Part shown: positions 17,674-61,631 of the stretch, piece by piece
How the letters are laid out: every line of letters starts with the position of its first letter
Position numbering within the stretch: position 1 is the first letter of the stretch
Translations under genes and position numbers: made by a program
The notes under the pieces: generated by a model
The model's input: only the letters and a program-made list of their open reading frames with translations
Database searches by the model: none
What the model was told of the DNA's origin: nothing
Assembly (NCBI GenBank): GCA_032718475.1
Contig: JAUCBJ010001800.1
Span: 16,862 to 80,861, forward strand
Origin: Nemertoderma westbladi
Lineage: Eukaryota; Animalia; Xenacoelomorpha
Length of the DNA stretch: 64,000 nucleotides
Direction of reading: 5' to 3'

Positions 17674-18793
17674 TGTAAAGGCTTTTGCGTAATTAGCTGG
17701 TTATTTTCCCCGTAAAGTACTCTGTAGTTGGTTTAACCAGCATAAAAGGCCGTGTCCTTACTGTATTGTTGTTTTAGAGGACATAAAAGCCATTTCTTCC
17801 ATATGTGTACTTTAGCGGACATGATTAGCAATTCTATGACGCAATAAGCCGGATCCTCTTGAAACAGTGTAGATACCATGACGACGGCTAACAGCTGATA
17901 TTGCCACGTAGAACATCTCTTTGTTCTTTGTTCTCTCTTTGTTCGGTCGACCAATCAGAGCGTTTTTTGCCTCTGTGTTGGAGATAGTGTATAGAAACTA
18001 GGGAAGGGAGTCAGTATGTGATTTTTCCACAGCCTACAACACCGGCGTGGAACCTCCGTGTTTCAGTCTTTAGTCTTACATTAGTAGGCTTAATTATAGA
18101 ACGTATATCCGTTATCAATGCAATGCTTACTGATCATATCAAACTCAGTCACTCATAATCATTCATACCTTAACATTACTGCTTTTACTGTCGGTTATTC
18201 ATTATATTTGTTGATGGAACATTATATTCGGAATACTGATAAACAATCAGACACCCCAATCTTCTTGATATACTAAAGGTTAGAGAGACCGGATACATAT
18301 AACGATTGCGACTTACATTAAGTGGTTTGAAGTGAATCTAATGCTATTTTATAGGCCCTACACGTATTGTCTGTTGTTCTCCTTATATGTGACTAAAATT
18401 AGTGAAGGTCGGCAGATTGGTGTGCAGCATTGTGCAGCATTGTGTATGATTGTGATTGATAACGAAGCATCTCCTAAAGAATGCGCCATATACGTGAATC
18501 TATAGCCATTGTTAATATATATAGCCACTGTTAATATTTCCCGAAAGTGAATAATATTTGTCAGAGATTATATATATTAAGATCAGTCGAATAATACAGT
18601 AGGCCTATCCCGCAATACGATTAGGCTTCCGAATCCAGTCTCCCGGGTATATCCAGCGGGTGAATGATCGCGCATAGACTGGTTTCGGCTAATGTAGTGT
18701 ATCAAATATTTGTCGTAGGCTAAAGACTATCTATTATCTAGAAGACATCCTAATTTGGCAGGTTAAACTGCTAAAGGTCTGAAAGCGCGAACA
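17674..18793 (+). repeat. 5' LTR of element A (1120 bp)
   Basis: Near-identical to 33450-34615; about 6 substitutions and one indel seen. Confidence 0.95.
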
Positions 18794-18814
18794 ATAACGG
18801 ATATAGCTTCTGTA
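18794..18814 (+). promoter_or_regulatory. Non-tRNA primer-binding site of A, complementary to LTR 18095-18115
   Basis: ATAACGGATATA is the reverse complement of TATATCCGTTAT (18104-18115). Pairing extends to 21 nt with 2 mismatches and one G-U pair. No TGG. Confidence 0.7.
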
Positions 18815-19645: not shown

Positions 19646-20962
19646 ATTATTCAGAGTTTATGCGATTATTCGCAACATTCATTCCCCAAGTTTATTCCTA
19701 CAGTAATTGTGCTTGTTATACATACCGTTATAGTTAAACTAACCCCGGTACTACATCAGGGCTGCTCGGCGTAGGTAAAGACTGGAGATTTTGTGCTTCG
19801 GTCACTCCGGCAGATACCGTGGTTCTTTTGGCTGTTCAAGTATTTTTAACTACCGATTATTTGTTGTAGAAGTACTTGTACCTAATTTAGGGTTTAGTGT
19901 ACAGTGCTTTCCGAAGGTGATTAGCGTGTAGGCAGTATATTTGTGTTGTAAAGTGGTTAATAGGCACGTTGGTTCTGGTAGACCGCGGTAATTAACTTCT
20001 AGGTAGGAACACTCCGTGATACATAACGTAGTACTTATAGCGATACGGCTATAAGTCGTCAGACGGTGGTATTTTTCTATCTGGACAACGCAGTATATTT
20101 ACTACTACTTACTCTGTCCGTTGTAATAACCAGATAATCTAACCCTTTGTTAGACTGGTTTGTAGACTTCTTGTAAAATTACCCTAAAAAATTCGTATAT
20201 GTGTATTTGTAATTTTTTTGTGTTTATTTAGAGATTGTAATCTCAACCCGAATTGTACGTAATTTGTAGTATTAAGTAACTTAGGTAAATTAGAATTATT
20301 TGTTTTAGTGTCCAACAAGTAGCACTTCACTGAGAGCGCACAGCTTCTGTGTAGTGACTCCCCCAGAAATAATAACATTTATTTCAAATATTGACAAAAC
20401 CCATTAAACGGGTATATATATATTATAAATCAACTCAAAGATTTATAAATAGTAGGCCTGCCATACATCAATTAGGTCTAAATATCAGTTGGACTACTGC
20501 TTAAATAACGGTAATAAAGTAAGTTAAAGTAACCAAGTAACCCTTAAAAATTCAGAAATTCAGTTATTCTAAAATAATTGACATACCGGTATTTAACATA
20601 GGCCTATTATATTTATTTCTATAAATTTTAGGCTGAAATTATACCGGTATTCTGTAATTAATTCTAGTCTGTAATTATACTTATATATATACATTATAAG
20701 TGTAAGCTGTATACCGGTATTCACGATAGGCCTATTATATATTTATCAATTTAGGCTGAAATCATACCGGTATTCTGTAATTAATTCTAGTTAATAATTA
20801 TACTTATATACTATAAGCATACCGGTATTCTAATATATTATATATATCACGCTACGCTGAGTAGCAGTATCGGTAATTAATTACTAGGCTAACAGTGATA
20901 CTGAATTACTAGACTTGCTTAAACTGTAATAGAGCAGTAGGCATTCAACTGTACAAACAAAC

Positions 20963-23160
20963 ATGTCTGACACTAAGCAAAACCTGTCGGACAGTCTCCT
21001 AGATACAACCATCTGTGACCCAGACAGGAGTGTGGAACGTGAGGGACCGAAGTTCAATTCACCTCCTACCGTAAGAAAGATCATCCCTCCAGTAGTAATA
21101 TCAGAACCTAGGCTGGTCCAACACCGTAGGTCTATCATAGGCACTCGAGCTCAGGTCAAGCGGGACCAAGAAGCAGCGGAACAACAACAACCCGCAAGCC
21201 AAGAACTTATTTCTCAACGGCCCAACAGCTCCAGTAGTGAGGATACTGTAGAGCTGACACCCGACCGCGGAGCAAAGATGACGGATGCGGTTTATTCGGA
21301 TCCCCTTCTCATCCTTCCTGCAGCCGTACTCACTAGGTTATTGATTGCGGTGGAAGAACACCAGATCGATTGGGCGAGAAGTAAGCGATCGACTAAAGAT
21401 AGTTATGCGGGATATACAAGGGAAGAACTGAAGTCTATTGTCGAGTCGCAATGGAACTTCCCCGGACCCGGACTCCCGTTTGATTTATCAGAAGCTGCCT
21501 GGGAAGACATACACCGGATGGGAGTAGCCAAGGAAACCATCGATCCAGCTGTGTGGAAGAGGTCCGCAGCCGGATACGCACAGGGATTCTTCAGCTCTAT
21601 GGAGCGAGTAAAAGAACAACTGTTTCAACAACCTCAAGGACCTCAAGAGCAGGGATCGCTGCTTTATCAAGTTAGGGAAAGAATTCTACGAATCAGGCTA
21701 ATCTTATCAGCCTTTGAGGAGGCTTCTAAAAGAAGACAAGACACGTCGTTGCAAGTTGCTGTAAAGACTTGGTTTCAAAGGGTGAGTCTCCAGGTTCAAG
21801 GAACGGCTCAGTGGAAAGTTCAACTGGATGAGCGCTCAACCCATGGAGAATCAACAGACGCTACTTTTTCCCAAGTGGAAAGTGAAGCGACGGCAGAGAA
21901 ACCGCATAAGAGGCATGCCATTGACATCTATCTGTCAGACTATCAACGTTTTTTAGGTGATGAAGAGTTGAGGAGAAGACTAGAGGGACTTAGCCCTAAT
22001 AGTGAAGGAGCCAAGCTTGTGTTGGACGCAATCAATGTGGATAGGTTAGCTGCGAACCAAGCTAAATTCAATGAAAGCATCCGCATCGCTAAGGTTCAAG
22101 AAGAACAAGTAAAGAAAAAACGTATAGAAGATAGAAAGACAGCGGCAGTGGCAGCAGCAGTGGCAGAGGCAGAAGCGGAAAGAAAAGCAGCAGCAGCAGT
22201 GGCAGCTGCAGAAGCGGAAAGAAAAGCGGCAGTGGCAGCAGCAGTGGCAGCGGCAGAAGCGGAAAGAAAAGCGGCAGTGGCAGTGGCAGTGGCAGAGGCC
22301 GAAGCGGAAAGAAAAGCGGCAGCGGCAGTGGCAGAGGCCGAAGCGGAAAGAAAAGCGGCAGTGGCAACAGCAGAGGCAGTGGCAGAAGCAGAACGGAGGG
22401 CATCTGAAGAGACAACCCAACTAGAGTTGGAAAATCTTCAAGAGAGGCAAGACAACTTCAATAAACAGTTAACAGCTAGTAATATGCAGATGATGAGTCG
22501 ATCTACTCCCAAAAGACAGGGGTATACATCATCTGAGGAAGGCGATACCACCGATCCTGAAGGCGGAGGAAATCGATCTCGCCTAAGCAGACGTAAAAGA
22601 ATGTGCCACCGTCAGAAATTGCTTGATTTGCCCCCAGCTGTTAGAAGGCAACTAGCTAGCACAGATTTAGGTAGTACAGAACCCACAGACCAAATAATTA
22701 ACATAGAAAGACTCCCTACTATAGTAGATGAGCCTGAAATAATTAGGCCTGTTCTCGAAGCCACCCCTTCGGTGATAGAGACACCTGTACTCCCTGAACC
22801 TACCTCTAAATTCCCTCTGCACAGCACGAAGCTACCTGTGCCCCACAGAACCACCCCTGAAATTGTTCATGTCCTGGACTCCGAGCGAAATATTCATGAC
22901 TTGTCGCCCGTTGTCCCTTGTCCGCCCGCTACAACGTTGGCGCCTCCCGCTTCGGCGGTCGAGTGGTTAGATGAGGGACGACGGGAGATGGGTCTCCTGT
23001 TCGGACAGCTGAAGGAACAACATTCTCGCTCCTCTGGGCAGGCCCAGGAGATGGAGGGAACTGTGCAGCAGTTAAAGGGAACAATTAGAGAGAGTAGGTT
23101 AGAGTTGCAAGAAGTGCAGCAAAGTATCGCGCTAGAACGCGATACCCAAAGAGGTGAGGT
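20963..23160 (+). CDS. gag: Element A gag N-terminal region (coiled coil, AAVAxAEAERK repeats), cut by an inversion
   Basis: Long ORF after the leader, with Ala/Glu/Lys repeats at 22140-22400. Codons past 23160 are inverted sequence. Confidence 0.7.
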
Positions 23161-24131
23161 CTCTATAGGGGTGTCGCGAACAGGCGGCGGCGGACTCGTG
23201 AGGGTCTGGGGGCACGTTAAATACTCTATATAGTGCAGGGGAGTTACTGAAGGCCCTCGTGTCTTGCGAACCATGAATTAACATGGTGCCGTGGTACCGT
23301 CTAGTCGGCCTGTTGCCGTACTGCTAGTCCTGTACACAGTAGGGGTGGTGGCTTAGTGTGATCTGTGGTTTGTGTGTGTACGTAGTATACGTGAGTGTGT
23401 GTATGGCCACTGCGAGTGAGTGTGGGAAACCTTGCCGGTTGGTTCAGTCGCCGCCGGTTATTAGTAGGACCATATCTTTACTGCGCCCCAGCATACTTTT
23501 TGCACACAAAGTTATTTTGCCCTGACGGCAAAATAAGGTACTCTCGGCTCTTTATTAGTCGATACAATTTTGTCCCCTCTGATTTTGTCACCGATTTTGT
23601 CTTCCCCGATTATGTCCTCTGTGTGTGCATGGTATGTGTCCGATTTTGTGTTTACCGTTGTGTACTTGATTTCGTGAGCATCTATTGAGTACACGTGTAC
23701 AGTGACTAGTAAGTGGTGACTTGTTCTTAGCTTTTAAGCTAGTCAGTATTGTTGGCGGAACCGACTTCCCCTCAATACTGCCGGCGAGGCGGGTGAAAAC
23801 GGTCAATATTCCATGTTGGGTAGCGCAAGCCCACTTGGGACAAGACCGTCGGTTTGGCTCAAGGGCGACCTTGATGCTCGATCGCTATCGACTGGTTCAC
23901 CCGCCGGTTGACTCTCTGAGTTGGCTCAATGTACAGTCAGGCCACAGTAAGTTGACAGTAGGCGAACTTGGGTGGAAGTTCGGCTACACACGACGAGCTG
24001 TGCCGGTGTGATCGGGGGATTGAAAATTGAACCTGGGAAGCATCGGGCTACCCTCCGGCCCGGTCTGATAAAAACGGAGTCAGACTGGCCCCAAGGGTGG
24101 TGGGACAGCGTCCGCCTCATGGGTGCGCCTC
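23161..24131 (-). other. Internal ~970-bp inversion within gag of element A
   Basis: Strand composition flips. Re-inverting gives an in-frame join …PVRDTPIE|EPRRTQ…. Short inverted duplications GAGG and TAGAG sit at the breakpoints. Confidence 0.7.
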
Positions 24132-24428
24132 GTAGAGGAGCCCAGAAGGACGCAAGCGAAATTAGTAAACACACAAAAGGGTATACCACCACCCCCTGTA
24201 ACAATGTGTCAACCCGTTAGGTCTGAAGTATCTCATGCGCAAGGTGTGGAGCCTACACGCATCTATACTGCTAGCGAAGTAGAAACTCCTATAGTAAACC
24301 CTATTAAGGGTAATTATAGACCTGTTGATAGTGATATTCCCTATAGACCTGATCATAATCCGAGAAATTTATATACCGATAACTCGATATTAAATAACAC
24401 GATGGCCCAATAAAGTTTTACGCGTCAA

Positions 24429-27400
24429 ATGGCTAGAACCGAAGCCCGCCAAGCGGTAAAGGTGGGAGAGATAGTCAAGTTCAATGGATATGAGATGAAA
24501 TGGTTACCTTTTAATGAATATTACAAAGATAACATACAGAACTCTGTGCTATCTAATGGAGAGAAACTTAGATTCCTCATCGAGTGCTTGGAAGGATCTC
24601 CTAAGTTAATGGCGTTAAAGTTTATTGGACATCCAGACGGATTAAGACAAGTTTGGGATACACTAAACATCAGGTATGGTAATAGGAATAACATAGCTGG
24701 GTATTTGTATGCAAAGTTGGTAGCGCCCCGAAAGTTTATTAGCAGCGGGATTATAGAGTTTTCCGATGAGATTCAGGAGATCTGCAGACAATTAGATTGG
24801 CTAGGTAAGTCTCATGAGTATCAGAGTGCTATGGTTATTAGAGCAGTGGCTTCTACTTTACCGAAGGGTGGAGTAGGTACACGCTGGGACAAGAAAGTGT
24901 TATATATGATGGAACAACAACAACGAGACCCTACCATGGCTGATCTCATGTCATTCTTGGATGGCGAAGTGAAATTACAGCTCATAAAGCAGTCCAGAGA
25001 GAAGACAACGGAAAACAAGGTAAGTGAGAAACCCGTCTCTAGGAGAAAGGTAATACCAGTGTGTTATACAGATGACGGCGAAAGCCAGACTTCCCAAGGA
25101 GAGGATAGCGGGAAAGACACTGAAAGATCTTATTATGTCAATAAAACGCCTAAAGACCAGGTAAGTAAATTCAAGTCTCGAACCAATGACAGGAGAGAAC
25201 AGGTAAGAAAAACTCCTCCTACGTCTCCCAAGAGAATTCAGGTGAGAAAGCCCGAAGAAAGAACGAGTGTGCACAATTTTATTCAAAATAAGGTAAGTAA
25301 CATCAAACCGAAATGTGCGCTATGTGACGGGACTCACCGTTTGAATATGTGTGATGAATTCCTGAAGAAATCATTAGCGGAGAGACGGGAAGTCATGTGG
25401 GATAAGCGGTTGTGTTATAATTGCCTCAGACAAGGACACCAACGGCGAACCTGTTACTCCGACACAAGGTGTGCAAAGTGCGGTGCGAAACATCATATCT
25501 TGTTGCACACTGAATTCGAGCGAAATAGTCCGAGTCAGGTAAGTGATTCCGAACTACATGTCCAATTCAGTGATGTGAACGACACTGATCAATCTGAGAT
25601 GGAAGGATTCTATACGGACGAGTTCTCCGACGAAAACGAATCCTGTTACATGATAAATACCGCAGTGTATCGAGCACTCACGTATGAAAAAGATATAGAC
25701 AGCGACCTCACCCTAACTACTTCTGATCGACAACCATCTTGGAAAGCGCCATCTTCCAATGTAGGAATCCGAGAATTTCCTGTAGTACAGGTAAGGGTCC
25801 ACGGACCTAAAAGGAGTTATGTAGTGAACGCCCTCCTTGACTCCGGTAGTACAGGAACATTCATCGACAAAGAACTAGCCGAAGACATCTTTGCTGGACA
25901 ACCCAAGTTCCGAACTAAGCTAAACATGTCAGGAATTATGCAGGTTTGGAAATCTACAGTAATCGCGGATTATTATGTAGGTGCGTTGTCCACCCCCCAG
26001 GATGAACTAGGAGAACATAGTATAAGGTCAGTAAAAATGGTGGCGATAAAGAACTTCGCTACCACTCAAGTGGAACCTTATAACTGGGATGAGGACGATT
26101 TCACCCAGCAGCTGGAAATACCTAGATTCAACACCGATTACCCTGGAGTGCAAATACTCATCGGTCAAAACGCGCATGAAGCGCTCGAGACATTGGAGAA
26201 ATGGCCCGCTCAACCGCAACCACTACAAGCTTATGCGGGAAGAACTAGAGTGGGTTGGTACTTTACTGGCCCTTCCCGTAGAACTCTCATGGAAAGATTA
26301 CCGAAAGACCAGGTATGTCAAGTGAGAGAATGGGAAGTCGAGAGCAGTGAGTTAGACGATCCAACTGAGGGAACACCATACTCCTCAGATAATGACGATG
26401 TCCACCAACTTTTTGACGAGGAGAATGCCATCGATCTCCTTAAGGAAAACGAGACTTGGCAAAACCAAGTGAATTTATGTCAACTCCTTCTTCCATCAGA
26501 GCGAGACGACTATAACGACGAGCTTAATGACGTCATTGAACGTTATAATGCCAAGACTCGGGACGAACACGCCGTACGATTCTTTACTCAAGAGGCTGTA
26601 GAGCCCAATTCCTACGATAAGGCCCTATCGGTAGAGGAAGAAAGAGCCAAGCAGATCCAAGAGACAACTACACGTTTTCTTAAAGATCAAGGTAGATATG
26701 AGATCGGTCTACCTTTCCGAAAGCGAGAACCAAAGTTTGTAAACAACAGACCCTTGGCGGAGAAAAGAATTGCTCAACTACATCGACGCCTTACGGCAAA
26801 TTCTTCAGCTAAAGAAATGTATCAAACGCAGTTGAAGAAGTTTATTAGCAAGGGATATGCGGAGCTAGTACCGGAAGAAACACCTATAACTGAGAGAACG
26901 TATTATTTAACTCACCATTATGTTCCCAAACCCGGTAAACCCCATGAAGTACGAGTGGTGTTTGACGGCTCCGCCCTCTATATGGGCCAATCCCTTAATT
27001 CTGAATTGTTACCCGTACCCAACTTGCTCCAATCATTGTTGGGAATACTTTTAAGATTAAGACAATATTCCATTGCTTTCGCCTCAGATATAGAAGGCAT
27101 GTTCTTACAAGTCAAAGCGCTGGATAGGGATCGAGATAGCCTACGATTTCTGTGGTGGCCTGAAGGAGACCTCAACCAGAAACCGGTGGAGTACTGGATG
27201 ACCATCCAAGCTTTTGGGATAATCTCGAGCCCTTCAAACGCCTGTTCCGTGGTGCGCACCACTGCGGATGACAACCGAGACGCCTTCTCTAAAGAGGTGA
27301 TTGACAACATTAAGCGGGATATATACATGGACGACAATCTAAAGTCCCTTCCATCAGTCAAAGAAGCCATTGATGTCGCTAAAGGAACGGTAGAGTGCTT

Positions 27401-27497
27401 AAAAAGAGGTGGATTTCGATTAACTAAATTCACCAGCAACTCCCGTGAGTTTCTGGAGTCGATGATCGAGATCGAGGAGCAAAAGACCTGGATCTAA
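24429..27497 (+). pseudogene. pol: Element A gag core (DUF1759-like), 3 Cys/His knuckles, aspartic protease, RT (ends in a frameshift)
   Basis: KFNG...W..F, CALCDGTHRLNMC / CYNCLRQGHQRRTC / CAKCGAKHHILLH, ALLDSGSTGTF, RVVFDGS, SDIEGMFLQV, IYMDDN. Confidence 0.9.
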
Positions 27498-27643
27498 TAA
27501 AAGATGATCTCCCAGAAACTAAGACCCTTGGTTTGAAATGGGACACCGAAAGAGATATCCTGTTTTTCCAACTAAAACAGCGAGATAATCCAGTTCGGAC
27601 TAAACGGATTTGTTGAAGTATCCTGAGCACTTATTTTGATCCA

Positions 27644-28657
27644 TTGGGATTTATTAGCCCAGTTATATTGATTGCTCGGAGTTTAGTACAACAAATGTGG
27701 CTTGAAAACCACTCATGGGACGATCCACTTAAGGGAGAGTTGTTAAAGAAGTGGATGAAATGGGAAGATTCTCTACCAGCCATCGAGAACTTTATAATTT
27801 CCCGTTCATATTTTGGTCATGTTCTCCCTACGTATTCCTATCAACTCCATGTGTTTGGAGACGCCAGCGATATGGGAATAGGTATAGTAGCCTACCTAAG
27901 GGTGGAAACTCCGGACGGAATCAAAGTCGCCTTGGTTACTTCTAAGGCATTGATAAACAATAAGTTGAAAGTTCCTCGAGCGGAGTTAAAAGCGGCTCTA
28001 TATGCTACAGCCATCAGCCGGAATGTAACAGAACAGATCGACTATCCACCAGAGAAAACTGTCTATTGGACCGACGCTTTACTCGTGTTGGAGTATATAA
28101 CCAATGAAGTCTGTCAGTTCAGCGTCTTCGTTACCAACAGAGTAGCCATTATACTCAGTCGCACAACGATGGATCAATGGAGACATTGCCCCAGAACGAT
28201 TAATCCAGCAGACATTGCCTCCAGGGGAGCAACTCCACAAGAACTGGTAGACACTCCAGACTGGTTAGGTGGACCCGACTTCCTCTACAAAGAAGAAGAA
28301 GAATGGCCTCCTCATCTTACTACCACAGAGATTAGACAGGCCAAGGGAGCGGAGAAAGTCAAACCTAAAACTCGGGCGAGTAAATCGAAGTTATTCAAAC
28401 CTATGGTAGATCTGTCTGTACTACATACTTCCGGAGACGACGCTTTGGATCAGAAACCCACAGCCACAAATAAACTTGTTGTGGAAATCCGTGAGAAGGA
28501 TTGGAAATCTGGAATACCAGACGTCTCGCAAGGACTCTCACCTCTTCTGCAGAGAGCGATACATCACTACAGTTCCTGGAATCGACTCTGTAAGGCCGTT
28601 ACATATTTAAAGAGATGTTTTCACCATCACTACTCCGGGATGAAGGCCAAAAGGTGA
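27644..28657 (+). pseudogene. pol: Element A RNase H (Pao peptidase A17 region)
   Basis: FDPLGFISP upstream, LHVFGDAS, PRAEL.AA, YWTD, WRHCP..INPADIASRG. Confidence 0.9.
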
Positions 28658-28676
28658 TACCACTCCAATAACATCA

Positions 28677-30206
28677 GTGCAGATCCATGTTATTAAAGAT
28701 CTTCCCAAATATAAGATACCCGACAAGTTTCTGAAGGAGAAGATCAGTTATCAGGAGCATGAAGAAACCAACAAGCAGATGCTGAGACTCCTGCAATGCT
28801 ATGAAGATTCCGATAAGTATTTCCAGTTGTTGAGAAATCCACAGATGCGCTTAAGGGATCGTTTCTCTAGCACAATGATAGATGGGTTGATACGTGTTGG
28901 AGGAAGATTAACGAATGCTCCATTATCCTTTGACACTAAGTTCCCCATACTCATTAGAAATCTTGAAATACAAGTCAAGATGATTGTAGATGTTCACAGC
29001 AAACTTTATCATGCTGGTAGGGAACGAGTTCTTAGCGAAATTCGAACTCGCTATTATTTTTATAAACCCCATAGAGCTCTGAACCAAGTTCTTAGGAACT
29101 GCATACCCTGTAGGAAAGCATTCAGTAGGCCTTTAACACAGCGAGAGGCAGAATTACCTAGGGAACGAGTAAGCTTCTATGAACCACCCTTTACTAATAC
29201 CGGTGTGGATTTATTTGGCCCTATTGAAGTATATCGTGCTAGGACTATTGTCAAGAGATGGTGTGTAATCTTTGTTTGTATGACTTGTAGAGCTATCCAT
29301 CTCGATATGGTGAACGATTTATCGACCAACAGCTTCCTATTAAGCTTACGACGACAGATCGCTCGCTTTGGCACTAGTAACACGATGAGATCTGATAAGG
29401 GAACTAACTTCATTGGTGCCAACAATGAAATCAAAGCTTACGTCAAAGATTGGAACCAAAGACAGGTGGACGATCAGCTACGAGTAACAGCGTCTAGCTG
29501 GACCTTCAACGCCGCCGACGCCCCTTGGTGGGGAGGAAGTTGGGAGAGATTAATAAGAAGTGTGAAGACAGCATTTCACTTTATAGTGCCTTGCCGCGCG
29601 TATCTCACCGACGAACTTTTGCGGACGTTAATGGAGGAAATCGCCGCCTATCTCAACGAGAGACCGCTTATGCCAGTCTCATCGAGTCCCGATTCCCTGG
29701 AAGCGCTAACACCCGCGCACTTCCTACTGAAGAAACCTGTAGCCATGCTACCACAATCGGAAATCACAGACGGAGACGAATACTGCCGGCAAACTTGGCA
29801 ACTCATGCAGTTGTTATCCCGTCGTTTCGCTGATCATTTCGAAAAACATTATCTGCCCACGCTACAACTTCGAACTAAGTGGTTTGCGCAGCAAGAAAAC
29901 GTCAGCGCTGGAGACATGGTTCTTATTGTGGATGTAGATCTTCCACGTAAGCGGTGGCAGACAGGTCGTATCATCGAGACTCACATCTCGGATGACGGTT
30001 TGGTGCGATCGGTAGAACTCGTCGTCATGCGACGTAACTTCAAGAAACCGGGAATTGTCTTCGAAACGCAGCAGCTCAATCGCCCAGTTGGTCGCTTATG
30101 TTTACTGGAAAGAGACAGAGAACTCTCCGGAAACTATGGGAGGCAAGATACTCTTCCCACGACCACCTCCCTAATCCAACAAACATATAGGGACTCCCCA
30201 GCTTAG
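28677..30206 (+). pseudogene. pol: Element A integrase plus DUF5641-like C-terminus
   Basis: RVGGRL, H..HAG...C..C, GVDLFGP, SDKGTNF, GGSWERLI, LTPAHFL, DGLVRSV. Confidence 0.9.
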
Positions 30207-30744: not shown

Positions 30745-31015
30745 ATCTGCAATTCTAGTCGATTAAGATATCGCGGCACCCACCGATATACTTGAAAGAC
30801 AAAATTCTAGAATCAGTGGTTAACGTCCCCAGACAACTGGAATAAACTGGTGCCCATCCTAAATATTAATTATTAATATTTACAAAATCTGTCAAAATTT
30901 AGATCCTTTAAAATTCTAGTCGATTAAGATATCGTAGCACTTACCGATACTCTTAAAAAGACAAATTCCTAGAATCTAGGATCCCAGTCCCCAGACACGT
31001 TCTGGAATAAAATTA
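30745..31015 (+). repeat. ~160-bp direct duplication in the pol-ORF3 spacer of A
   Basis: AATTCTAGTCGATTAAGATATCG…GACAAA…CTAGAATC…TCCCCAGACA…CTGGAATAAA occurs at about 30751 and 30912. Confidence 0.8.
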
Positions 31016-31847: not shown

Positions 31848-33369
31848 TGACTAAGTTGATAGAAGATGATCTTGGTATCAGGGAGCGATATACTCTAAGT
31901 TTACAAACGTTTGTTGATAGCTTGATACGCGGCGACGCTGGTCCAACTACTACGGAGGACGATGGTCGTTATATCTAAGCGCCAATGTCCCGGGAGCAAC
32001 TTGCGCGTGGGTTGGACTGTAGAAAATTCACCGCTCGCTGTGCGCGTCGTAAATGGTACGTATATGGACTTCTTAACTACTGGTCATCCTATCGACCTAC
32101 ACGATACGAACGATATAGACACCAAAAGGGAAATGGTTTTATTTAAATATCATACCCAGCGGAAGCGGAACGATAAACTGAGACTCGAACACGAAAATTC
32201 TATTCGAAACCGACTCGAAAGTGCAGATGTTGAAGAGCCGGATAAACGCAGCGACTTCACCAAATACCTGGAATTCTTGAGAGAAACCTATTTCGATATT
32301 ACCAGTCAACAGAATCTAGAAACTCGATATCCTCAAGGTATACATCATGACCGCATGGTAGAACTCAAACGGCTCTATTCCACTATGATGTATCTTACCG
32401 CCGATCGACCGCTACCTGTTGTACCGGATAGCTTCGAACAGATGGAGGAATATTGTAAAACTGGAGAACGATCACCCACGTTTCCCCTACAAGACGTGCG
32501 TCTTTAGTATTATTGCAATGAATGCCCAAGACCCAACCAACAAACGAAAAGACATAAACATCCGCGGAGACGTTGCTTTAAACACGGTTTTACTCGCTAT
32601 ATTTACGGGAGTTTCGAGCGAAACTTGTTCGATGTATCACCTACGCTCGTTCGACTCGGACGATCCTTAAATAAACCAATGATCAGAGTTTCGGAATACT
32701 CGATCAGACCTCCTCATTCCCTAGTGAGACCTCAGACTCTTGATCCTATTAGTATGACGGATCCTCCCGAGCTGTACTCACTGCTCAAAGATCTAGTGTT
32801 ACCTGAACAATTAGTCGGTGGCACCCCGGTTGTGGGCTTCCTAGATATTAGCCCATCCTACCTAGCCGGATTGGGACGCGGACATTTAATATCGCCGTTT
32901 AACCCTTACCATCGTCCCGGCTTAACACGATATAACCTGTCACCAAAGTGGCGGAGAGCATTGTACCAAATGAGTTAGACGCTATTCTACAAAGATCAGA
33001 AAAGGAACTTATGCTTGTTCAGATAAACGTAAATTGCACTAGCAAGTCCAAGCGGTAAACAAAGTAACTATATCTCAGTTCGATCGGGAAATCCAGAATC
33101 TCTAAGAAGTTATCGAACTTGGACGACCCTATTCTCTGCGAGAGTTTTTGGATGAACGTATCCAGCTACGAGGAGGAAAATCAGCTCGAGGAGAAGCATA
33201 TCGAAACGGCGGATACCCCGACCATAATCCTACACCTTCTGATGCAATCATATTGCACCCTTCACCCAGGATTTATAGCCCTCCTAGTAAAGTGGCTCGC
33301 CCCAAAGAGAAAAGGACTCTTGCTAGCCTCAAAAAACTGCGTAAACGCCGTCCTCGTAAGAAAGACTAA
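31848..33369 (+). pseudogene. Element A ORF3 (disrupted), homologous to the N-terminal domain of element B ORF3
   Basis: 31962-32507 and 32625-32978 are in the same frame across a TAG. ELKRLYSTMMYLTADRPLPVV..F..M..Y + YYCNEC…RCFKH aligns with B ORF3. Basic tail KKLRKRRPRKKD. Confidence 0.65.
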
Positions 33370-33449
33370 CTGTTTAGAGTAACTTTATATTTTAGAAACT
33401 GTGATTTGTTATATTTTATAGACTTAATAATCCCATTTTCTGGGAGCGG

Positions 33450-34615
33450 TGTAAAGGCTTTTGCGTAATTAGCTGGTTATTTTCCCCTTAAAGTACTCTG
33501 TAGTTGGTTTAACCAGCATAAAAGGCCGTGTCCTTACTGTATTGTTGTTTTAGAGGACATAAAAGCCATTTCTTCCGTATGTGTACTTTAGCAGACATGA
33601 TTAGCAATTCTATGACGCAATAAGCCGGATCCTCTTGAAACAGTGTAGATACCATGACGACGGCTAACAGCTGATATTGCCACGTAGAACATCTCTTTGT
33701 TCTTTGTTCTCTCTTTGTTCGGTCGACCAATCAGAGCGTTTTTTGCCTCTGTGTTGGAGATGGTGTATAGAAACTAGGGAAGGGAATCAGTATGTGATTT
33801 TTCCACAGCCTACAACACCGGCGTGGAACCTCCGTGTTTCAGTCTTTAGTCTTACATTAGTAGGCTTAATTATAGAATGTATATCCGTTATCAATGCAAT
33901 GCTTACTGATCATATCAAACTCAGTCACTCATAATCATTCATACCTTAACATTACTGCTTTTACTGTCGGTTATTCATTATATTTGTTGATGGAACATTA
34001 TATTCGGAATACTGATAAACAATCAGACACCCCAATCTTCTTGATATACTAAAGGTTAGAGAGACCGGATACATATAACGATTGCGACTTACATTAAGTG
34101 GTTTGAAGTGAATCTAATGCTATTTTATAGGCCCTACACGTATTGTCTGTTGTTCTCCTTATATGTGACTAAAATTAGTGAAGGTCGGCAGATTGGTGTG
34201 CAGCATTGTGCAGCATTGTGTATGATTGTGATTGATAACGAAGCATCTCCTAAAGAATGCGCCATATACGTGAATCTATAGCCATCCCGTTGTGTCTGGT
34301 TTAAGTCATAACTCTGTTTATATATTTAAAGCGCCACGTCCTAAAGGAACTGTTAATATTTCCCGAAAGTGAATAATATTTGTCAGAGATTATATATATT
34401 AAGATCAGTCGAATAATACAGTAGGCCTATCCCGCAATACGATTAGGCTTCCGAATCCAGTCTCCCGGGTATATCCAGCGGGTGAATGATCGCGCATAGA
34501 CTGGTTTCGGCTAATGTAGTGTATCAAATATTTGTCGTAGGCTAAAGACTATCTATTATCTAGAAGACATCCTAATTTGGCAGGTTAAACTGCTAAAGGT
34601 CTGAAAGCGCGAACA
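33450..34615 (+). repeat. 3' LTR of element A (1166 bp), preceded by short PPT TGGGAGCGG
   Basis: Direct repeat of 17674-18793, followed by TSD AGATC. Confidence 0.95.
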
Positions 34616-34620
34616 AGATC

Positions 34621-36600: not shown

Positions 36601-36853
36601 AGTATCAATATCTGATATCAATATAATAATGCTTGCTATATTTGGGTCAGATATATATATACTGTATATATCAGTATATAGCCGGTACAACAATACCAGA
36701 ATACAGTCAGGCAGTTGGCACGGCATAAGCAGACACATTCAGTACACAGTCAGACAAAGGTAATAAGGTACCGGTAATACTGTTGTAGGCTATATCAGCC
36801 ATACTAAAATATAACCACCACCAAGATAATATATAATTAAGGTACTGTATAAC

Positions 36854-37148: not shown

Positions 37149-39053
37149 TATAGAATTATATTCTCTAAATGCCGTGGATTTTCAAAATTTTTATTTTATT
37201 CGAATTAACTTTGTTAAAAGATTACATTAAGTCCTCATTTGTATTTGCTATATCTATTTGTACGATGATTAGTCAAGTGGTTCAGTAGCTCAGTCGGTAG
37301 AGCGTTGGAAATTATATGTAGTGTGTATTGAGTTCGAATCCTTATTATTTTTTGTGCAGAATTTCAACTCATTTAAATTGACCGCTACAAATTAATTGCA
37401 TTTGCTCGAAGTAAGATTAACCAATGAGACTGTAGTTATTAGATTGTAACCAATGTCGTACAAGTTATATATTTGCTGGACCAATAGCTATCTTTAAAAA
37501 CCTGTTAGAACTCATAGAACAATCGAGAATTTTCTCGATTGATTGCGGCACAAATTTGGTATAAAAGGTGCGATTTCGTTCATTAGTTATATATCTAAAT
37601 CAGATTATATCTAAATCTCAGTCTATATCTCAATCATTCGTGATTTAGATTATCTTTATCTATTAGTTTCTTGTTACGTTTATGTATATCTTCTGTAATA
37701 AAGTCAGAATTATCGCTAATCTGCCCTTTTTCTATCTGTTCTACTATGCTTCACCACGGTGAACTCAACTGAGGGACAGGATGGCTGGCTAAACATCGGG
37801 CCACAGCAATGAACGGGAACATCTAAGGAATGTAGACAGGAGACAACCCGCAATATCACTCTTAGTTATTCGCCCATCGCCTGAAAGGTTAGACAGCGTT
37901 CGATGCCTTGCTACCTAAGTATAAGACCAAAGATCGAAGGTAGAGGTAGTGACACGCTGTACGCCTAAAATTACATCTAGGGACTGTACTGTTTTAATTC
38001 GGGAAAAAACCGCAGTAGACCTTCATATTCCTACGGGGGGAGAGCAGGCAGAGATACTAGTACGCAGATAGGACGTAGGCACACCGGTACAAAGCATACA
38101 CATTGGTAGGGTGCAGCAAACTGTACGCCTAACTCTTGCTAAGTACAGGTGCGTCTGTGACTATTTGTAGTACAACGGTGTCCATTGCATTAGAACTTGT
38201 AGGCCAGGAGGGTTACTGTGTTTCACCTGAATTAGGATTGTACCGTTCAGGCGGTAGGGCAGTTTACGACTAGGCGCAAATAAATTGAGGCTAATTAGGG
38301 ATACTAACATCTACCGTGTCCCCGCCGACATCCTGATAGGAAGTTACCAAGCCCACCTAGGTAACCAAAATTCTAGATAGGACGCCAGGCTAGCTATTAG
38401 TAACCGTACGCCTACTGTAGTAAACTAACACATTTCTTCTTAGCATTAGGGACCTGGTAAATTAAAATTGCCGAATTCTGGGCGTAGCATTAACCTTATG
38501 CCCGAATTTGAGTCCTGGAAATACGCAAGAGGGGAAGGAGCCTTATCATTCGTGAGTATTGGACCTACAAGTTACAAAATTAGAATATTCGTAAAATGCA
38601 CACCGTACCCAGTAATTATATATATGAAGGAGCAAAACTGATCTTGACGGTTCAGAATTAACACACGCGAGTTAGAAATTATTTACACCTCAAAATATAT
38701 AAAATTAACTTTTGTCCGTACTGCACTTTGCCCGCTAGTTAGACATCTCCAGATCTCTGCACCTAGCTAGCGTCCTTTTCGCCCAACCATATAAATCACA
38801 CCGCGGCAAAGTATACGAGCCCCTTAGTCCGTCAGTGAGTCAGCCTGATTTTAGGATTCGCTGCGCGGGATTTTGTTTTATCGAAGTTTGTCCGTTCGTA
38901 GACTGTTTTCTGCCTCACCGGTTATAAGAGACCGATACTGCAATATATTCGCTTACTTGGAGTTTACTGTTTTGGTGATAAGGTCGGATTTATGATTTGA
39001 TTCACAAACTCTACAGTAGGATATTGCAGGTATTGTTACTGTCTCTTCATTTA
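37149..39053 (+). repeat. 5' LTR of element B (1905 bp; termini TA…TA)
   Basis: Direct repeat of 53854-55769. TATA-like TATAAAAG at 37560; AATAAA at about 37697 and 38279. Confidence 0.95.
37279..37353 (+). ncRNA. tRNA-like Pol III cassette (A box, B box, T-tract) inside the LTR of B; second copy at about 53985-54069
   Basis: TAGCTCAGTCGGTAGAGC (D-arm / A box), GAGTTCGAATCC (B box), then a T tract. Acceptor and anticodon stems do not pair well. Confidence 0.55.
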
Positions 39054-39072
39054 GTAGGAATATGAAGGTCTA
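39054..39072 (+). promoter_or_regulatory. Non-tRNA primer-binding site of B, perfectly complementary to LTR 38016-38034
   Basis: GTAGGAATATGAAGGTCTA is the exact reverse complement of TAGACCTTCATATTCCTAC (38016-38034 and 54732-54750). Confidence 0.8.
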
Positions 39073-39757: not shown

Positions 39758-39842
39758 TGACTGTAATTAGTACCGTTTTGATATAAATACGGTAAATTTG
39801 ATACTTTGACACTCACATTTTACTTGACTTACAACTACCGAA

Positions 39843-42800
39843 ATGAGTGACAAACAAGACTATACGAAGAATACACCTACCGACTATGACTCATGTGACG
39901 CGGATAAGTCAGCAGCGGAAGAACTACAAGGGAAGACTTGTGAGCCTACCGAACCTACACCGTGTGCGTCACCAGTACATCCAACGGGAGTACCGGATGC
40001 CGTAGTACGAGGCGACGGCAGGACTGAGGATTTCCTAACGGTCCCGCAACCTAGATACAGGGAAACGGAGATGGTAAGTTCAGTAGGAAGCACAGAAAGT
40101 GTGGTTAGAAGCGTCGGAGGCTACATGGCGCATATTACTAGGAGTATTGGAGAAGGCCAACGCGTATTAGACGAGTTGACCGCTCCGATGTCTCGATTCG
40201 AGTTCTACACCCTCCAGGTTAGAGTACAAAGTAGAGTACATAAGTACGTAGATAATCTAATTGGTCTACAAGATCTAGCTAGACAGAGACAGGATGTGGA
40301 TACTCAACTTAGAATCCTCGAGAAACTAATGATCGCTAGAGAGAAACTGATTCAGTTTAAGTCGACGATTAGGCAGATACAACAGGAACAAGCGGACCAG
40401 TTGTTAGGTGAGTCAGTTTCGGACGAATTATTGCAGCCCGAGGAAGAACAGGAACTGTACCGACTGGATGGACAATTGAAACATCTGACGGACCACTTAC
40501 GTATGTGCGGTGAAGACGTCGGCGATTTGGAAACCGTGCCGGAATATACGAGGGAAACTTCACCCGTACAAATCGAATCGGCACCGGGAATACTGGACCA
40601 ATCGTTAGTGAGTATTGGCGAGGTAAGTATAGTGACGTCAGAAATTTCCAGACAGCAACAACAGCACTATAGACAACAACGGGAAATTGAGGAACAAACT
40701 CAACTGTTGACGGTACAAGCGGCGGTAGAAGAAGAAAAACTACGCGTTGCAAATGTTGCAAGAATCTCTCATCTGCAAGAACAAGCCGAGTTGGAAGCAG
40801 CTGAGATGGAAAGGTTGGAGCTAGAAATAGCACAGCGAACAGCGGCAGCTGAGTTAGCGCAACAAGCGGCAGCAGCTGAGTTAGAACGACGAGCGGCAGC
40901 AGCTGAGTTAGAACGACGAGCAGCAGCAGCGGAACTAGAGCGACGAGCAGCGGAGTTGGAAGAACACAAGCGAGTTTCGGAAGTAAGAGCTGAGATGAAA
41001 AAACGGCAAATAAAGGCTCAATCAGCTATACGACAAGCGGAGTTCGAGGCGCAACAACAACAGACGGAACAACGCGAGAAAGAAGTTAAACTTCATTTCG
41101 AACTCGAGAAGAAGGCGAGAGAATTAGCCAACGCGAAGGAAGATCTGGATCTACAAGCCCGCGATCGATCGATGAGATCTCGTGACGGACATGATTTGGA
41201 CCAGATAGAGGTAAGGCACCGCCAAATTCAGGAACGAATGAAGGAAGGAAGTGTAGGGGCACCTGGGCGAGAAAGACAATTAGTTAAAGACTTATGTCAA
41301 AGATTCCCTCAAGTAACTCCTATGTTTGCACCAGTTACGACTAAGGAACCTGTTTCGATTGCTGGTAGTAGTAATATTTCTCCTATCCATGGTGCGACGG
41401 AACACAGGTTTGTTATTCCGGACAAGTTTACACCGCCAAGAGCAACGTCATCGCCTATTCTGAAAGTCAAGGTAAGTAACCCACCGATTATAGATCGTAG
41501 TAGTTTGTTGACCAGACCTGCACTGCTGACGACTAAACAGGTGAGTCCACCTTTGACACCAAAACCCGTTACGCACTACACGTACCCAATGACGTTTAGG
41601 CCTACAAGGCCTTTAGATTCAAACGCTGTCATTCGACCACCGTTTAATCAGTTTACATCGCAATCTACAACTTCGAGGAAGACTTGTGAGCCTACCAAAC
41701 AACGGAGAACAGTGGATACGCGACCGTTTAATCAGTTTACATCGCAATCTACAACTTCGAGGAAGACTTGTGAGCCTACCGAACAACGGAGAACAGTGGA
41801 TACGCGACCGTTTAATCAGTTTACATCGCAATCTACAACTTCGAGGAAGACTTGTGAGCCTACCGAACAACGGAGAACAGTGGATGATGTTCCGAAACGG
41901 AATGTTAGAATTCGAACGACACAACGGACGCGAGCACGTCGACCAACATATCCAGGTGACAGTAGTACTTCAAGCGAGTCGGATTACCCGGAACGCGAGG
42001 TATTTAGAACAGGAGCGGCCGACGAATATAAACGTGAGCGTTCAGATAACTCCTTTATCGATAATCCTCCACACAATACACCAACACAGAAAGCGTTACA
42101 ACCAACAGACGCGATTAGTACGCAACAATTCGCCGATCTAATGCGACCAGTTGTAGACAAGTTGGCCCAGATAGAAGAACGTTTAGAAGAAACTCAAACT
42201 GATAGTTCGCGAGGTAACGAACACTCTAGACACCCGAAGCAGCAAAGAAAACAACCCTCGAGAAACACCTCGTATCAAGGAAAAGCGCCAAGACGAGAGA
42301 ACATCAACTCGATTGCCAACCAAGGACGCGAAACTTTGAACGTGGCCGAGGAGATAGCAAAATTTGCAGCGAGACAAGGACTACCGGTGCAACAACCACT
42401 GAAGTTTTCCGGTAACTCGAAACATTGGCACACCTTTGAGGACTACATCGAAACACAAATAGCAGCGTGCGCCTTTACATCAAGGGAAAAATTCAACTAC
42501 CTGCTACAAACGCTGACGGGAGAACCGAAACGTTTAGCGGAGACCTTTGTCGGTGTACCAGACGCCTTCGAACTAGCGTACGATCGCTTAACTTCGATTT
42601 ACGGAGGCACCGTAAGCATGGCTAAGTCAGTCATAGAAGAACTCTGTAAGGGGGGGGCTATAACAAAACCCGTTGACTTACTGAAATTAGCTGACGAGAT
42701 TAAGAACGCCATTACTACACTACGCTCGATTGGACAACTTGACTACGCGAACACTCCGACAGTCCTATTGAAAATAATAGGAAGATTACACCATCGACTT

Positions 42801-42860
42801 CGTCGGGAGTGGCGAAAGATAGAATATCAGCGAGAAGAGAGGAGAAGAGCGGATTCTTGA
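39843..42860 (+). CDS. gag: Element B gag (coiled coil plus DUF1759-like core), ends at a frameshift
   Basis: PLKFSGNSKHWHTF…EKFNYLLQTLTGEPK. Contains AAAELERR repeats and an 84-bp x3 repeat at 41635-41885. Confidence 0.85.
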   Translation: MSDKQDYTKNTPTDYDSCDADKSAAEELQGKTCEPTEPTPCASPVHPTGVPDAVVRGDGRTEDFLTVPQPRYRETEMVSSVGSTESVVRSVGGYMAHITRSIGEGQRVLDELTAPMSRFEFYTLQVRVQSRVHKYVDNLIGLQDLARQRQDVDTQLRILEKLMIAREKLIQFKSTIRQIQQEQADQLLGESVSDELLQPEEEQELYRLDGQLKHLTDHLRMCGEDVGDLETVPEYTRETSPVQIESAPGILDQSLVSIGEVSIVTSEISRQQQQHYRQQREIEEQTQLLTVQAAVEEEKLRVANVARISHLQEQAELEAAEMERLELEIAQRTAAAELAQQAAAAELERRAAAAELERRAAAAELERRAAELEEHKRVSEVRAEMKKRQIKAQSAIRQAEFEAQQQQTEQREKEVKLHFELEKKARELANAKEDLDLQARDRSMRSRDGHDLDQIEVRHRQIQERMKEGSVGAPGRERQLVKDLCQRFPQVTPMFAPVTTKEPVSIAGSSNISPIHGATEHRFVIPDKFTPPRATSSPILKVKVSNPPIIDRSSLLTRPALLTTKQVSPPLTPKPVTHYTYPMTFRPTRPLDSNAVIRPPFNQFTSQSTTSRKTCEPTKQRRTVDTRPFNQFTSQSTTSRKTCEPTEQRRTVDTRPFNQFTSQSTTSRKTCEPTEQRRTVDDVPKRNVRIRTTQRTRARRPTYPGDSSTSSESDYPEREVFRTGAADEYKRERSDNSFIDNPPHNTPTQKALQPTDAISTQQFADLMRPVVDKLAQIEERLEETQTDSSRGNEHSRHPKQQRKQPSRNTSYQGKAPRRENINSIANQGRETLNVAEEIAKFAARQGLPVQQPLKFSGNSKHWHTFEDYIETQIAACAFTSREKFNYLLQTLTGEPKRLAETFVGVPDAFELAYDRLTSIYGGTVSMAKSVIEELCKGGAITKPVDLLKLADEIKNAITTLRSIGQLDYANTPTVLLKIIGRLHHRLRREWRKIEYQREERRRADS

Positions 42861-44632
42861 AGTTGGAAGACGTCTACTTACTGATATCCAGAGAGGCAGT
42901 AGTCGAGACGCGTTCGAACTACACGGACCACCATATTGTGGCGGAAGGAATAACCTTACCATCCTCCAACAGACAAAAACCACCGATGACATCCACAAAG
43001 ACGGTTACCTACGCAACATCGACCGACACCCGACAATTTTCGGACAGTAATAAGGTATCCGCACCAATTGGAACCAAACAGATCCGACAGCAACTGAGCA
43101 CAGACTTTAGCGGTTGCCAATATTGCGAACGGCTAGGTTAATGACATACTAGCCATAAACTGAGAGGTTTTCGACTATTCCGCGAATTGAACTCGGAGGA
43201 ACGACGACTGCAAATACGGCCATTGGACTCTTGTTGGCGGTGTACGCTACATGGACATGTCCGTAAAGACTGCCCAAATACAGACACCTGTCCTTCCTGT
43301 GGACGCAACCATGGCGGTTTGCTCAACACAGACAGTCATACGCCGACAAAACGCTTCACCAGGGAACACCCGGAAGCGGCAGCAAGATGCAACACAGCAT
43401 ATAAGGGTCGAGAGTCAAAAACAACACCGACTTTCGTGACATACATTAGAGATTGCTTCTCGGAACAATCAGGATCGTCGGATGAAGAGTCGGAAGACGA
43501 AGACGTTTACTTTGATACTGGAGACGAACAACCATCGATTGCGCTTCTGACGCCTGATCAACTAAAGGGGTTTAGTATAATTCCTGTCAAGATTACTGGC
43601 ACCAAAGGGAGCAAAAGGATCTACGCTATCCTGGATTCAGCCTCATCTCATAGCTACGTGGATGAGAAAGTAGCTGATGTTGTGACGGATCTCCGACAAG
43701 GTAAGAACGTCAGTTACACCGTAAGTAGTATGCATGGACAACGTGCAATACCAGTGACACGAGTTAAGTTGAACTTAGACACTCTTCTTCCGAAATCACA
43801 ACATAGCGAAAAGGAGAGGTCTTTGTTACCCTTTAAAGATTTAACCGTTGCGGCCACAAAGGACTTTAGTAACCTACTAGGTCCTGTCCCAGAACAATCC
43901 TTGGAGGACCGTAAGTACTTCAGACACCTTGGTGTACCTGAATGTCCTGTCAACTATAGGTCGGTAGCAATGCTGATCGGGACAGATCAATTCAACCTAC
44001 ATCAAGTGTGGGAAACCAGACCATCGGCAGTCGTAGCGGGAAACGCATACGCCTGTAGAACGCCGATAGGGTGGTATACTCGAGCGCCTGTGCGCACACT
44101 GGATATAAGTGACGAGGAAGACGATATACAAAGTACATGTAGTTTATTAACTACAACTTCGACTCATTCCTTTTCACACGACGTAGACTATACTACACTA
44201 CATTCGACAAAACATGACACGACGTGTGTAGTGAGTATGATAAGTCACAAGGAGCAGCTAATCCACCAGGTGAGTTTAGAACTTGGGAAGAAGACGAGTC
44301 AGCCAGAGATTCCATCGACGACAGATGATAACGCCGGAAGGCTTGCGAGTCTACCTCAACCAATAACCTCAACAATGCCCGTCGATATCGATGATGACGC
44401 GTTAAGAAATCATCAAGTGGAACAAGCTGCACTGGACAAAGAATTAACGGAGAAGACTATCAGGTGGTTAGAACAAGATACAGCCGAACCTGGTAGCTAT
44501 GAACCATGTATGTCGGAACAAGAGAAACAATCTTTGAAGATCATGGAAGATACTATCCGCCAGACGAAAGACGGACATTATGAGGTAGGGGTGCTATGCC
44601 GTAACCAACGTCCTAAACTTATAAATAACTAG
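42809..44632 (+). pseudogene. pol: Element B gag knuckles plus aspartic protease (broken by a stop or frameshift)
   Basis: CQYCERLG*, CWRCTLHGHVRKDC, CPSCGRNHGGLL, AILDSASSHSY, LIGTD. Confidence 0.8.
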
Positions 44633-44706
44633 CCTTAAGACGTTTACACTCAATACGACAACGTCTATTAAAGGACGAGAAAGCCCATCTGCAGTATAAT
44701 ACTCAG

Positions 44707-48696: not shown

Positions 48697-49358
48697 TTAG
48701 GAGTTTACAAATAGATTTCCACGTACCTGTACACTGTAGTAAGGACAGCGGTAGAATTCCATTGTCTTTATATGTGAACATTGAGGGTAGTACCCTTATG
48801 TGTCACATAGGAGCGGGATTTGTAGGTATAAGAAATGGAATTCTACTTGGAACTCACAATATTGAGACATTTTCGAAATTTTAGACAATCCATTTGGATT
48901 TGAAAATTTTTTAAAATTTTCTCCAGTGAATAGATTTCAGGGTACAGTCGGGTGGAACTTAAAATTTGAGAAACAAGAGAGGAAGACTTGCGAGCCTTTC
49001 TTAAAAATTTTAATTAAATTTTACACGGTCTTGTTTCAATAAGTTACGTCAAAATAGACTTCCCTATATTTATTACTAATTCTTGACTGCTTATTTTCTG
49101 ATAATAGTTTGGGATCAAAAAGTGAGTATTTTAGACTCACAGCCAGTTTAGCCCAAATTCGTTTTTATTTTCGGCAAAAAATTTTAGATAAGAAGCAGCG
49201 TGTCATTAAAGAAACCCTAGATCTTAGGCTATGGGTAGGAGGTTAGAGCGTTGTCGAGCCAAAAGGGCAGACGAAAACTCTCACATCTCCTCACAACTAA
49301 CTACAAACTCTGTTGTATTCCCTCTAGTAGTAATGATTATGTAACTACACCTCTAATT

Positions 49359-61627: not shown

Positions 61628-61631
61628 AGAC

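Follow-up and report, generated by a model that had tools for sequence, protein, structure and literature searches.

Why should an LTR (long terminal repeat) retrotransposon encode a nuclease at the place where, in some elements of this kind, an envelope gene would sit? The papers found describe one case, in rotifers. The question is raised again by a stretch of 64,000 nucleotides from Nemertoderma westbladi (contig JAUCBJ010001800.1, the window in what follows), which contains nested LTR retrotransposons and an F-box gene. Two of the retrotransposons, element A (17674-34615) and element B (37149-55769), are young, belong to the BEL/Pao type, known from animals, and carry after pol, between the integrase and the 3' LTR, a third open reading frame (ORF3). 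The original prediction held that the two ORF3s share an unrecognised accessory domain, here called the module. A real shared domain was found, and in B it precedes a 3'-5' exonuclease-like domain and three zinc knuckles. The reading that we prefer, tentatively and with somewhat less than even confidence, is that the element would encode a protein for trimming its own RNA at the 3' ends, in which the module would serve for RNA binding or docking.

The cores of the two modules align with 33% identity over 101 columns. Their Smith-Waterman score is 115, to be compared with 40.6 +/- 4.9 (maximum 65) for 500 shuffles, with a maximum of 82 for 1000 rearrangements of B by 25-residue blocks, and with a best score of 51 for 318 other 350-residue segments of the window. 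By using the whole window as subject in tblastn, the A/B core (E 4.6e-6) was the sole non-self match at E<=1. The helical half alone scores 83, a value reached by none of 2000 shuffles, and the cysteine half 48, reached by 4 of 2000; the Cys/His part is thus the weaker signal. The four candidate Cys/His ligands are all aligned (C 32514, C 32523, C 32574 and H 32583 in A; C 49803, C 49812, C 49884 and H 49893 in B). No DNA-level similarity is left between the two modules, and conservation is therefore at the protein level. Calculated by region, A and B are identical for 25% in gag, 24% in the protease, 33% in the module, 45% in the reverse transcriptase (RT), 43% in RNase H and 44% in the integrase. 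The module lies between the first two values and the last three, as fits common descent under constraint. A chance similarity could be argued from an identity of only 33% over 101 columns and from weaker matches that are not significant by themselves; with none of the 500, 1000 and 318 controls reaching the observed score, and with an identical position in both elements, it is extremely unlikely. The two modules are almost certainly homologous. A longer alignment, reaching further upstream than the core, was discarded, since 1624 of 2000 shuffles did as well.

The peptides quoted for A and B in the original prediction were found at their places, as was the basic tail of A, resembling a nuclear localisation signal (NLS), at about 33304-33366. 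The two weaker matches it listed are also present; neither holds up alone. YRNGGYP is equalled in 8 of 500 shuffles (9 of 2000, when restricted to the next 100 residues of B) and is out of order, while VNKVTISQFDR gives E 4.1. VNKVTISQFDR is collinear with another match, to B residues 353-402, and a chain as good as these two arises in 1 of 150 full shuffles and in 4 of 300 block shuffles. The chain hints that A retained both ends of a B-like protein, without the middle.

The CxxC...CxxH pattern, from which zinc binding had been suggested, occurs in both copies, and it is fairly likely that the module binds zinc through C-C-C-H. Treble-clef fingers, such as the second LIM finger and THAP, have two Cys from a knuckle, followed by C-x2-H. 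The module likewise reads C-x2-C...C-x2-H, and differs in being one finger only, in having a spacer (16-23 residues) shorter than that of THAP and in lacking the THAP Trp. Four assignments to known families were rejected. A CCHC knuckle has C-x2-C-x4-H-x4-C, instead of C-x2-C-x16/23-C-x2-H. THAP domains are of C2CH type, with a spacer of 35-50 residues and conserved Pro, Trp and Phe; the module has spacers of 16 and 23 residues, no Trp in the finger and no Pfam match at E<=1. LIM domains are made of two tandem fingers with eight ligands; here only four Cys/His are shared and, again, Pfam gives no match at E<=1. FLYWCH/WRKY fingers, C-xn-C-xn-H-x-H with a Trp before the first Cys, came from an Atlas lead of 0.77, with the family on 28% of members, which is at chance level; the ligand pattern also differs.

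The domain, not recognised in the original prediction, was likewise unrecognised by all the family resources used: Pfam, NCBIfam and PHROGs returned only chance-level rows, PDB sequences one row with E 0.6, and Atlas a best score of 0.79, at chance level. Word-index protein searches gave 5131 candidates among near-length proteins for B residues 41-500, none of them confirmed, and 1710 among longer proteins for the A/B alignment, none at E<=0.1. A phmmer search with B residues 41-1154 over 1.84 billion representatives produced 4 hits, none on the module. In metagenome, viral and prokaryote contigs there were 229, 25 and 54 matches to the module pattern, respectively, none confirmed, and a six-frame search of the window returned only the A and B copies. 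Animal transposon proteins are sparsely represented in the collections used, which do not include Repbase, Dfam or GyDB, so that these blanks do not show absence, and "orphan", as applied to the module, means unfound here. An AlphaFold model of the module has N-terminal helices, with a predicted local distance difference test (pLDDT) score of 40 overall and below 50 in the Cys region, where nothing is reliable; at this pLDDT the Foldseek result, 0 matches at E<=0.001, is uninformative. The module is better conserved in this pair of elements than gag or protease, and it may represent a new small zinc-binding family.

Element B tells what the module is attached to. Its ORF3 runs for 3.7 kb with no break, against 37.9 expected, and contains, in this order, the orphan module, a DEDDy-type 3'-5' exonuclease-like domain, three CCHC knuckles and a C-terminal block (Table 1). 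Two of the phmmer hits, P0004 and P0006 (558- and 648-residue proteins), align to the middle and C-terminal part of B, with 28% and 23% identity, and have the same exonuclease, knuckles and C-terminal block. The other two, P0003 and P0005, were rejected as knuckle-only matches in unrelated genes. A search with the nuclease-knuckle alignment, over 3375 candidates and viral contigs, found no further members; three metagenome loci that it brought up were again knuckle-only matches in unrelated genes.

The untrimmed alignment of B, P0004 and P0006 was compared with 11 named exonucleases of RNase D/Pol I type; the match, which spans Exo I and Exo II, has a probability of 93% (E 3.4e-7). In these motifs, D511, E513 and D601 of B are aligned with D28, E30 and D85 of RNase D. 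A candidate Exo III, placed by eye, reads Y-x3-E in B (Y706 and E710) and P0006 and Y-x3-D in P0004. When B residues 485-760 were searched in Atlas, 24 of 30 hits were PF01612 3'-5' exonuclease clusters (best 0.92), and P0006 alone scored 16.8 bits on the 11-enzyme profile, with 0 of 300 shuffles as high. On this evidence, the nuclease fold is very probable for B. With the DEDDy exonucleases of RNase D, Pol I proofreading and WRN type (PF01612), B shares Exo I and Exo II by profile; it differs from them in the last acidic residue, an E, in its long insertions, and in the fusion to knuckles and an orphan module. Two of the knuckles are exact copies of C-x2-C-x4-H-x4-C, the other has five residues before the His, and they match nucleocapsid structures with E about 6e-4. 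The module is unrelated to either neighbour, since its profile probability is 0.1% against the DEDDy exonucleases and 0.3% against the knuckle-bearing alignment. No transmembrane segment is found in B ORF3, the top 19-residue hydropathy being 1.38 in B and 1.25 in the main frame of A. An envelope was therefore rejected for ORF3, which has no Pfam match to one either.

Selection was examined in copies related to B. In one public run, contigs 90-99% like B ORF3 cover 19 of 30 bins, the module being uncovered. They show 57 differences in total, 40 of which are listed. Of the listed ones, 31 fall between the first ATG and 52460, where 21 are silent, 10 replacing and none a stop. Against a neutral silent share of 0.27, which assumes a transition weight of 4, the excess has p 2.4e-6, with a ratio of replacing to silent rates (dN/dS) of about 0.18. 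Of the other listed differences, 2 precede the ATG and 7 are in the low-complexity tail, where they divide 3 to 4; the 4 listed indels are all before the ATG or in the tail. The middle and C-terminal part of B is thus under selection, with mostly silent change among related copies. This bears on the idea that ORF3 is a passenger, taken from another mobile element or from a host gene and of no use to these BEL/Pao elements. Exonuclease ORFs have been exchanged between unrelated retroelements (PMC5408684) and are also present in DNA transposons, polypurine-tract-like words follow pol directly in both A and B, as though ORF3 had been appended to a former terminus, and A lets its copy decay. However, 3.7 kb without any of the 37.9 expected breaks, the silent excess in the B family, and an ORF3 that occupies the same position in two elements with just 44% identity in pol make a useless passenger very unlikely.

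The polypurine-tract-like words themselves, GGAGTGGG and GGAGCGG, are found between pol and ORF3 at 30215, 31145 and 48810. They are perhaps older element ends or internal plus-strand starts.

The ORF3 of A is a decayed remnant. It has at least 4 breaks, where 300 shuffles have 13.8 +/- 2.0 and never fewer than 8; these are far fewer than in shuffled DNA and the region was therefore once coding. Neither nuclease nor knuckles were detected in the remnant. Decay probably began before the last insertion, the LTRs of A being only 0.7% apart. A different order of events has been considered, in which a nuclear regulator comparable to Rev or to nematode CERV, exporting or stabilising unspliced element RNA, would be built around the module, with the short, basic form of A as the original type and the nuclease as an addition of B. 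The A remnant is indeed short, with the module kept and a basic tail at the end, a similar basic run ends the post-pol region of a third BEL/Pao element, C, and CERV, which is needed for export, combines a Cys-rich region with a candidate NLS (PMC10309623). Yet the likeness of the A tail is compositional only, B has no such terminal tail, the A gene is decaying, and the weak in-order matches flanking the B nuclease suggest a loss in A rather than a gain in B. We consider such a regulator quite unlikely.

Element C also limits how far the gene can be traced. Its post-pol region, up to the window end, has no match to ORF3 of A or B; a match to A seen by eye was rejected on testing. It is a GC-richer stretch with 8 breaks, against 8.3 in shuffles, and looks non-coding by the measure applied to the ORF3s. 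The proposal that ORF3 is an ancestral modular gene of the lineage is upheld in part. ORF3 is modular, the nuclease and knuckles of B having no counterpart found in A, and its divergence fits common descent; ancestry for the whole lineage goes beyond what two elements and a C without match can show.

According to the reading preferred here, ORF3 would be translated from its own, probably spliced, message, for which 48926 and 49327 are candidate acceptors; a separate spliced message is described as typical for ORF3s (PMC5408684). The module would bind one zinc ion through C-C-C-H, and, with the knuckles, would hold the nuclease on the RNA-protein particle of the element, where the putative D-E-D-Y-E site would trim RNA 3' ends. 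In the A lineage the gene may have been shortened, with both ends kept and nuclease and knuckles lost, and may have decayed later. The weakest step is the target, namely that it lies on the element's own RNA.

Several observations weigh against this reading. As to the enzyme, the profile match stops short of Exo III, and B has E as its last acidic residue where the 11 known enzymes have D. Taken alone, B scores -0.2 bits on the exonuclease profile (4 of 300 shuffles as high) and P0004 -1.9 bits (33 of 300), and Pfam finds no exonuclease domain in B ORF3. Both fold models are poor, with pLDDT 40 for the module and about 30 for the nuclease (29.7, AlphaFold). As to the module, only two copies are known, all searches for more being blank, and therefore nothing tests which residues are conserved; its Cys half is only moderately significant by itself (4 of 2000), and the spacers differ (16 against 23). 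P0004 and P0006, which share nuclease and knuckles, are without it. The selection test omits it too, and rests on one low-depth contig run, with 40 of 57 differences. Finally, the ORF3 of A is more densely broken than its pol (4 breaks within 1.4 kb, pol having 3 within the 5.8 kb of 24414-30203); A inserted recently with an ORF3 broken and devoid of a detectable nuclease, so that the gene is dispensable in cis for A, and C, nearer to A by pol (60% identity), has no ORF3 match.

ORF3 might also counter the small-RNA silencing of the host: its protein would degrade or sequester small RNAs, or mimic factors of Mut-7/EXD1 type, the module contacting a host protein. The altered last acidic residue would be compatible with binding instead of cutting. 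Host proteins of the DEDDy fold act in small-RNA pathways, and such a role is discussed for the rotifer ORF3s (PMC5408684); moreover, the combination of a nuclease with several CCHC knuckles recurs in P0004 and P0006. The same source sees no clear link of such ORFs to copy number (PMC5408684), and a counter-silencing function is, in our judgement, unlikely.

A possible substrate is offered by the primer sites. Self-complementary primer sites had been reported for both elements, and this was confirmed: from the first base after the LTR, the exact self-complement is 12 nt long in A and 19 nt in B, a length matched in either element by 0 of 2000 random internal positions. A gypsy-type element of the window (57599-61627, with 211-bp LTRs) served as internal control, and has a TGG-type primer site without self-complement. 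The geometry in A and B suits self-priming of the Tf1 type. In Tf1 and Tj1 the primer site is likewise complementary to the element's own LTR and not to a tRNA (PMC4600332, PMC6317226); the lineages named there as self-priming are Tf1/Sushi, Tcn1 and plant TAR, with no BEL/Pao among them, and the available text names no accessory nuclease. The co-occurrence of ORF3 with such a site concerns two elements, too few to show a tie. The candidate self-primer of B begins right after a CAG, a possible splice acceptor (38010-38034).

ORF3 might make the self-primer usable. Element RNA would pair with its own primer site and be cut, the knuckles would help annealing, the 3'-5' nuclease would remove the protruding tail up to the duplex, so that the 3' end lies flush with the LTR, and the module would recognise the structure. 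In both elements the predicted 3' end of the primer pairs with the first base after the LTR, enzymes of RNase D type trim structured RNA ends (PMC5408684), and B has both the longer, 19-nt duplex and the intact nuclease. On the other hand, A, with the same primer layout, moved recently without a detectable nuclease, and the cut in Tf1 self-priming needs the RNase H of RT, according to a reference title in PMC4600332. Furthermore, the rotifer elements carry exonuclease ORF3s, and the term PBS is absent from the available text of PMC5408684. Primer trimming is accordingly held to be quite improbable, and the same low probability is given to its wider form, in which a self-priming BEL/Pao branch would encode a primer-maturation enzyme, and A-like elements, having lost the nuclease, would borrow it from B-like helpers. 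If true, it would be a step for which no accessory enzyme was found described in any retroelement.

The coordinates of the features are collected in Table 1. The domain order PR-RT-RH-IN, with a DUF1759 gag, Peptidase_A17 and an integrase with DUF5641, was found in both A and B. Element A is flanked by a 5-bp target duplication, AGATC (17669-17673 and 34616-34620), and its LTRs have TG...CA ends, where those of B end TA...TA. Despite these ends, the 1.9-kb LTRs of B are bordered by a clean 5-bp target duplication, CCTGA. Its insertion site is the pol gene of C (about 36300-37148, 55770-57598 and 61628-64000), which is interrupted by B and by the gypsy element. Between RNase H and integrase, B pol contains a 183-bp in-frame tandem duplication (46429-46797), and B gag contains three 84-bp repeats (41639-41890). 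Near the LTR start of B, a tRNA-like stretch with A-box and B-box words (37277-37342) is copied in the 3' LTR; ARAGORN and Rfam call nothing there. The 1.2 kb between the two gag segments of A (23233-24414) have stops in all three plus-strand frames. The F-box gene adjoining A has 481 uninterrupted codons (15032-16477). Elsewhere in the window there are a 1.15-kb direct repeat with 94.5% identity (1-1135 and 34854-36003), a BEL/Pao integrase fragment on the minus strand (1686-2018), and an array of 33-bp units, G-rich on the plus strand (9742-10924).

Table 1. Position, in the window, of the features of elements A and B
Feature	Position	Strand	Details
A ORF3 remnant	31926..33369	+	first in-frame ATG 31962; at least 4 breaks; basic tail at end
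A module copy	32340..32615	+	helical stretch, then C-x2-C-x16-C-x2-H; stop codon 32505-32507
A weak in-order match to B residues 353-402	32664..32852	+	matched B residues lie just before the nuclease
A weak in-order match to B residues 1038-1080	32929..33087	+	includes VNKVTISQFDR at 33055
A YRNGGYP..NP segment and basic NLS-like tail	33199..33366	+	weak, out-of-order match to B 224-258
B ORF3, unbroken	49239..53051	+	first ATG 49359, 1,230 residues from there
B module copy	49623..49925	+	frame residues 129-229; helical stretch, then C-x2-C-x23-C-x2-H
B DEDDy-type 3'-5' exonuclease-like domain	50718..51404	+	candidate active site D511, E513, D601, Y706, E710
B three CCHC zinc knuckles	51954..52133	+	residues 906-965
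B C-terminal block	52161..52478	+	shared in part with P0004 and P0006
A 5' LTR	17674..18793	+	ends TGT...ACA; 8 mismatches, 3 gaps (46 bases) against 3' LTR
A LTR stretch complementary to primer site	18104..18115	+	candidate self-primer; duplex extends 7 more pairs
A non-tRNA primer site	18794..18805	+	flush with LTR end
A gag-pol, BEL/Pao type	20933..30206	+	split over several frames; Pfam DUF1759, Peptidase_A17, Integrase_H2C2, DUF5641
A polypurine tract	33443..33449	+	GGAGCGG, identical to that of B
A 3' LTR	33450..34615	+	
B 5' LTR	37149..39053	+	TA...TA ends; 8 mismatches, 2 gaps over 1916 columns against 3' LTR
B LTR stretch complementary to primer site	38016..38034	+	19 nt
B non-tRNA primer site	39054..39072	+	flush with LTR end
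B gag-pol, BEL/Pao type	39828..48696	+	Pfam domains as in A; 4 breaks in 39843-48693
B 3' LTR	53854..55769	+	polypurine tract 53847-53853 directly before

B carries such a gene unbroken and under selection, in another superfamily; its domains can be read in order and its own primer site is a possible substrate, so that the function of a nuclease at the envelope position becomes a testable question. Should the gene prove to be no more than another captured nuclease, led by a lineage-specific segment, the known cargo of transposons would grow by one minor entry. In the rotifer case the hosts, Juno and Vesta, are gypsy-type elements, unlike the BEL/Pao hosts of the ORF3s described here. DEDD nucleases are also known from the DNA transposons Dada and KolobokD (PMC3706591, PMC9587614). 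In the open-access literature, no paper was found that combines DEDDy, retrotransposon and BEL, and no BEL/Pao exonuclease ORF3 was found published; by keyword, two surveys of marine LTR elements give no exonuclease or additional ORF in their available text (PMC6238403, PMC8556966), nor is a BEL/Pao extra ORF described in that of PMC8220671.

Among accessory proteins of LTR elements, CERV, from Cer1 of C. elegans, is likewise an orphan, with a Cys-rich loop and a candidate NLS (PMC10309623). As far as descriptions can be compared, it differs in being spliced from the gag region and in having a predicted C4 finger and a G-protein-like domain, whereas ORF3 is post-pol and has a nuclease (PMC10309623). 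Exonuclease ORF3s with a DEED motif are described for the bdelloid rotifer LTR elements Juno and Vesta, and also for Terminons, their function not being tested there (PMC5408684, PMC6431247); the role proposed for them is 3'-end processing of element RNA (PMC5408684). Like that of B, the Juno and Vesta ORF3 is a non-envelope, post-pol, RNase D-like protein, whose acidic motif is altered and which lacks a membrane segment (PMC5408684). The motif, compared by description, is DEED there and apparently D-E-D-E in B, and neither a triple CCHC knuckle nor an N-terminal C2CH module is reported in the available text (PMC5408684). The ORF3 of B is thus of a known kind, the nuclease type; it is set apart by its N-terminal module, without a found relative, its three knuckles and its BEL/Pao host.

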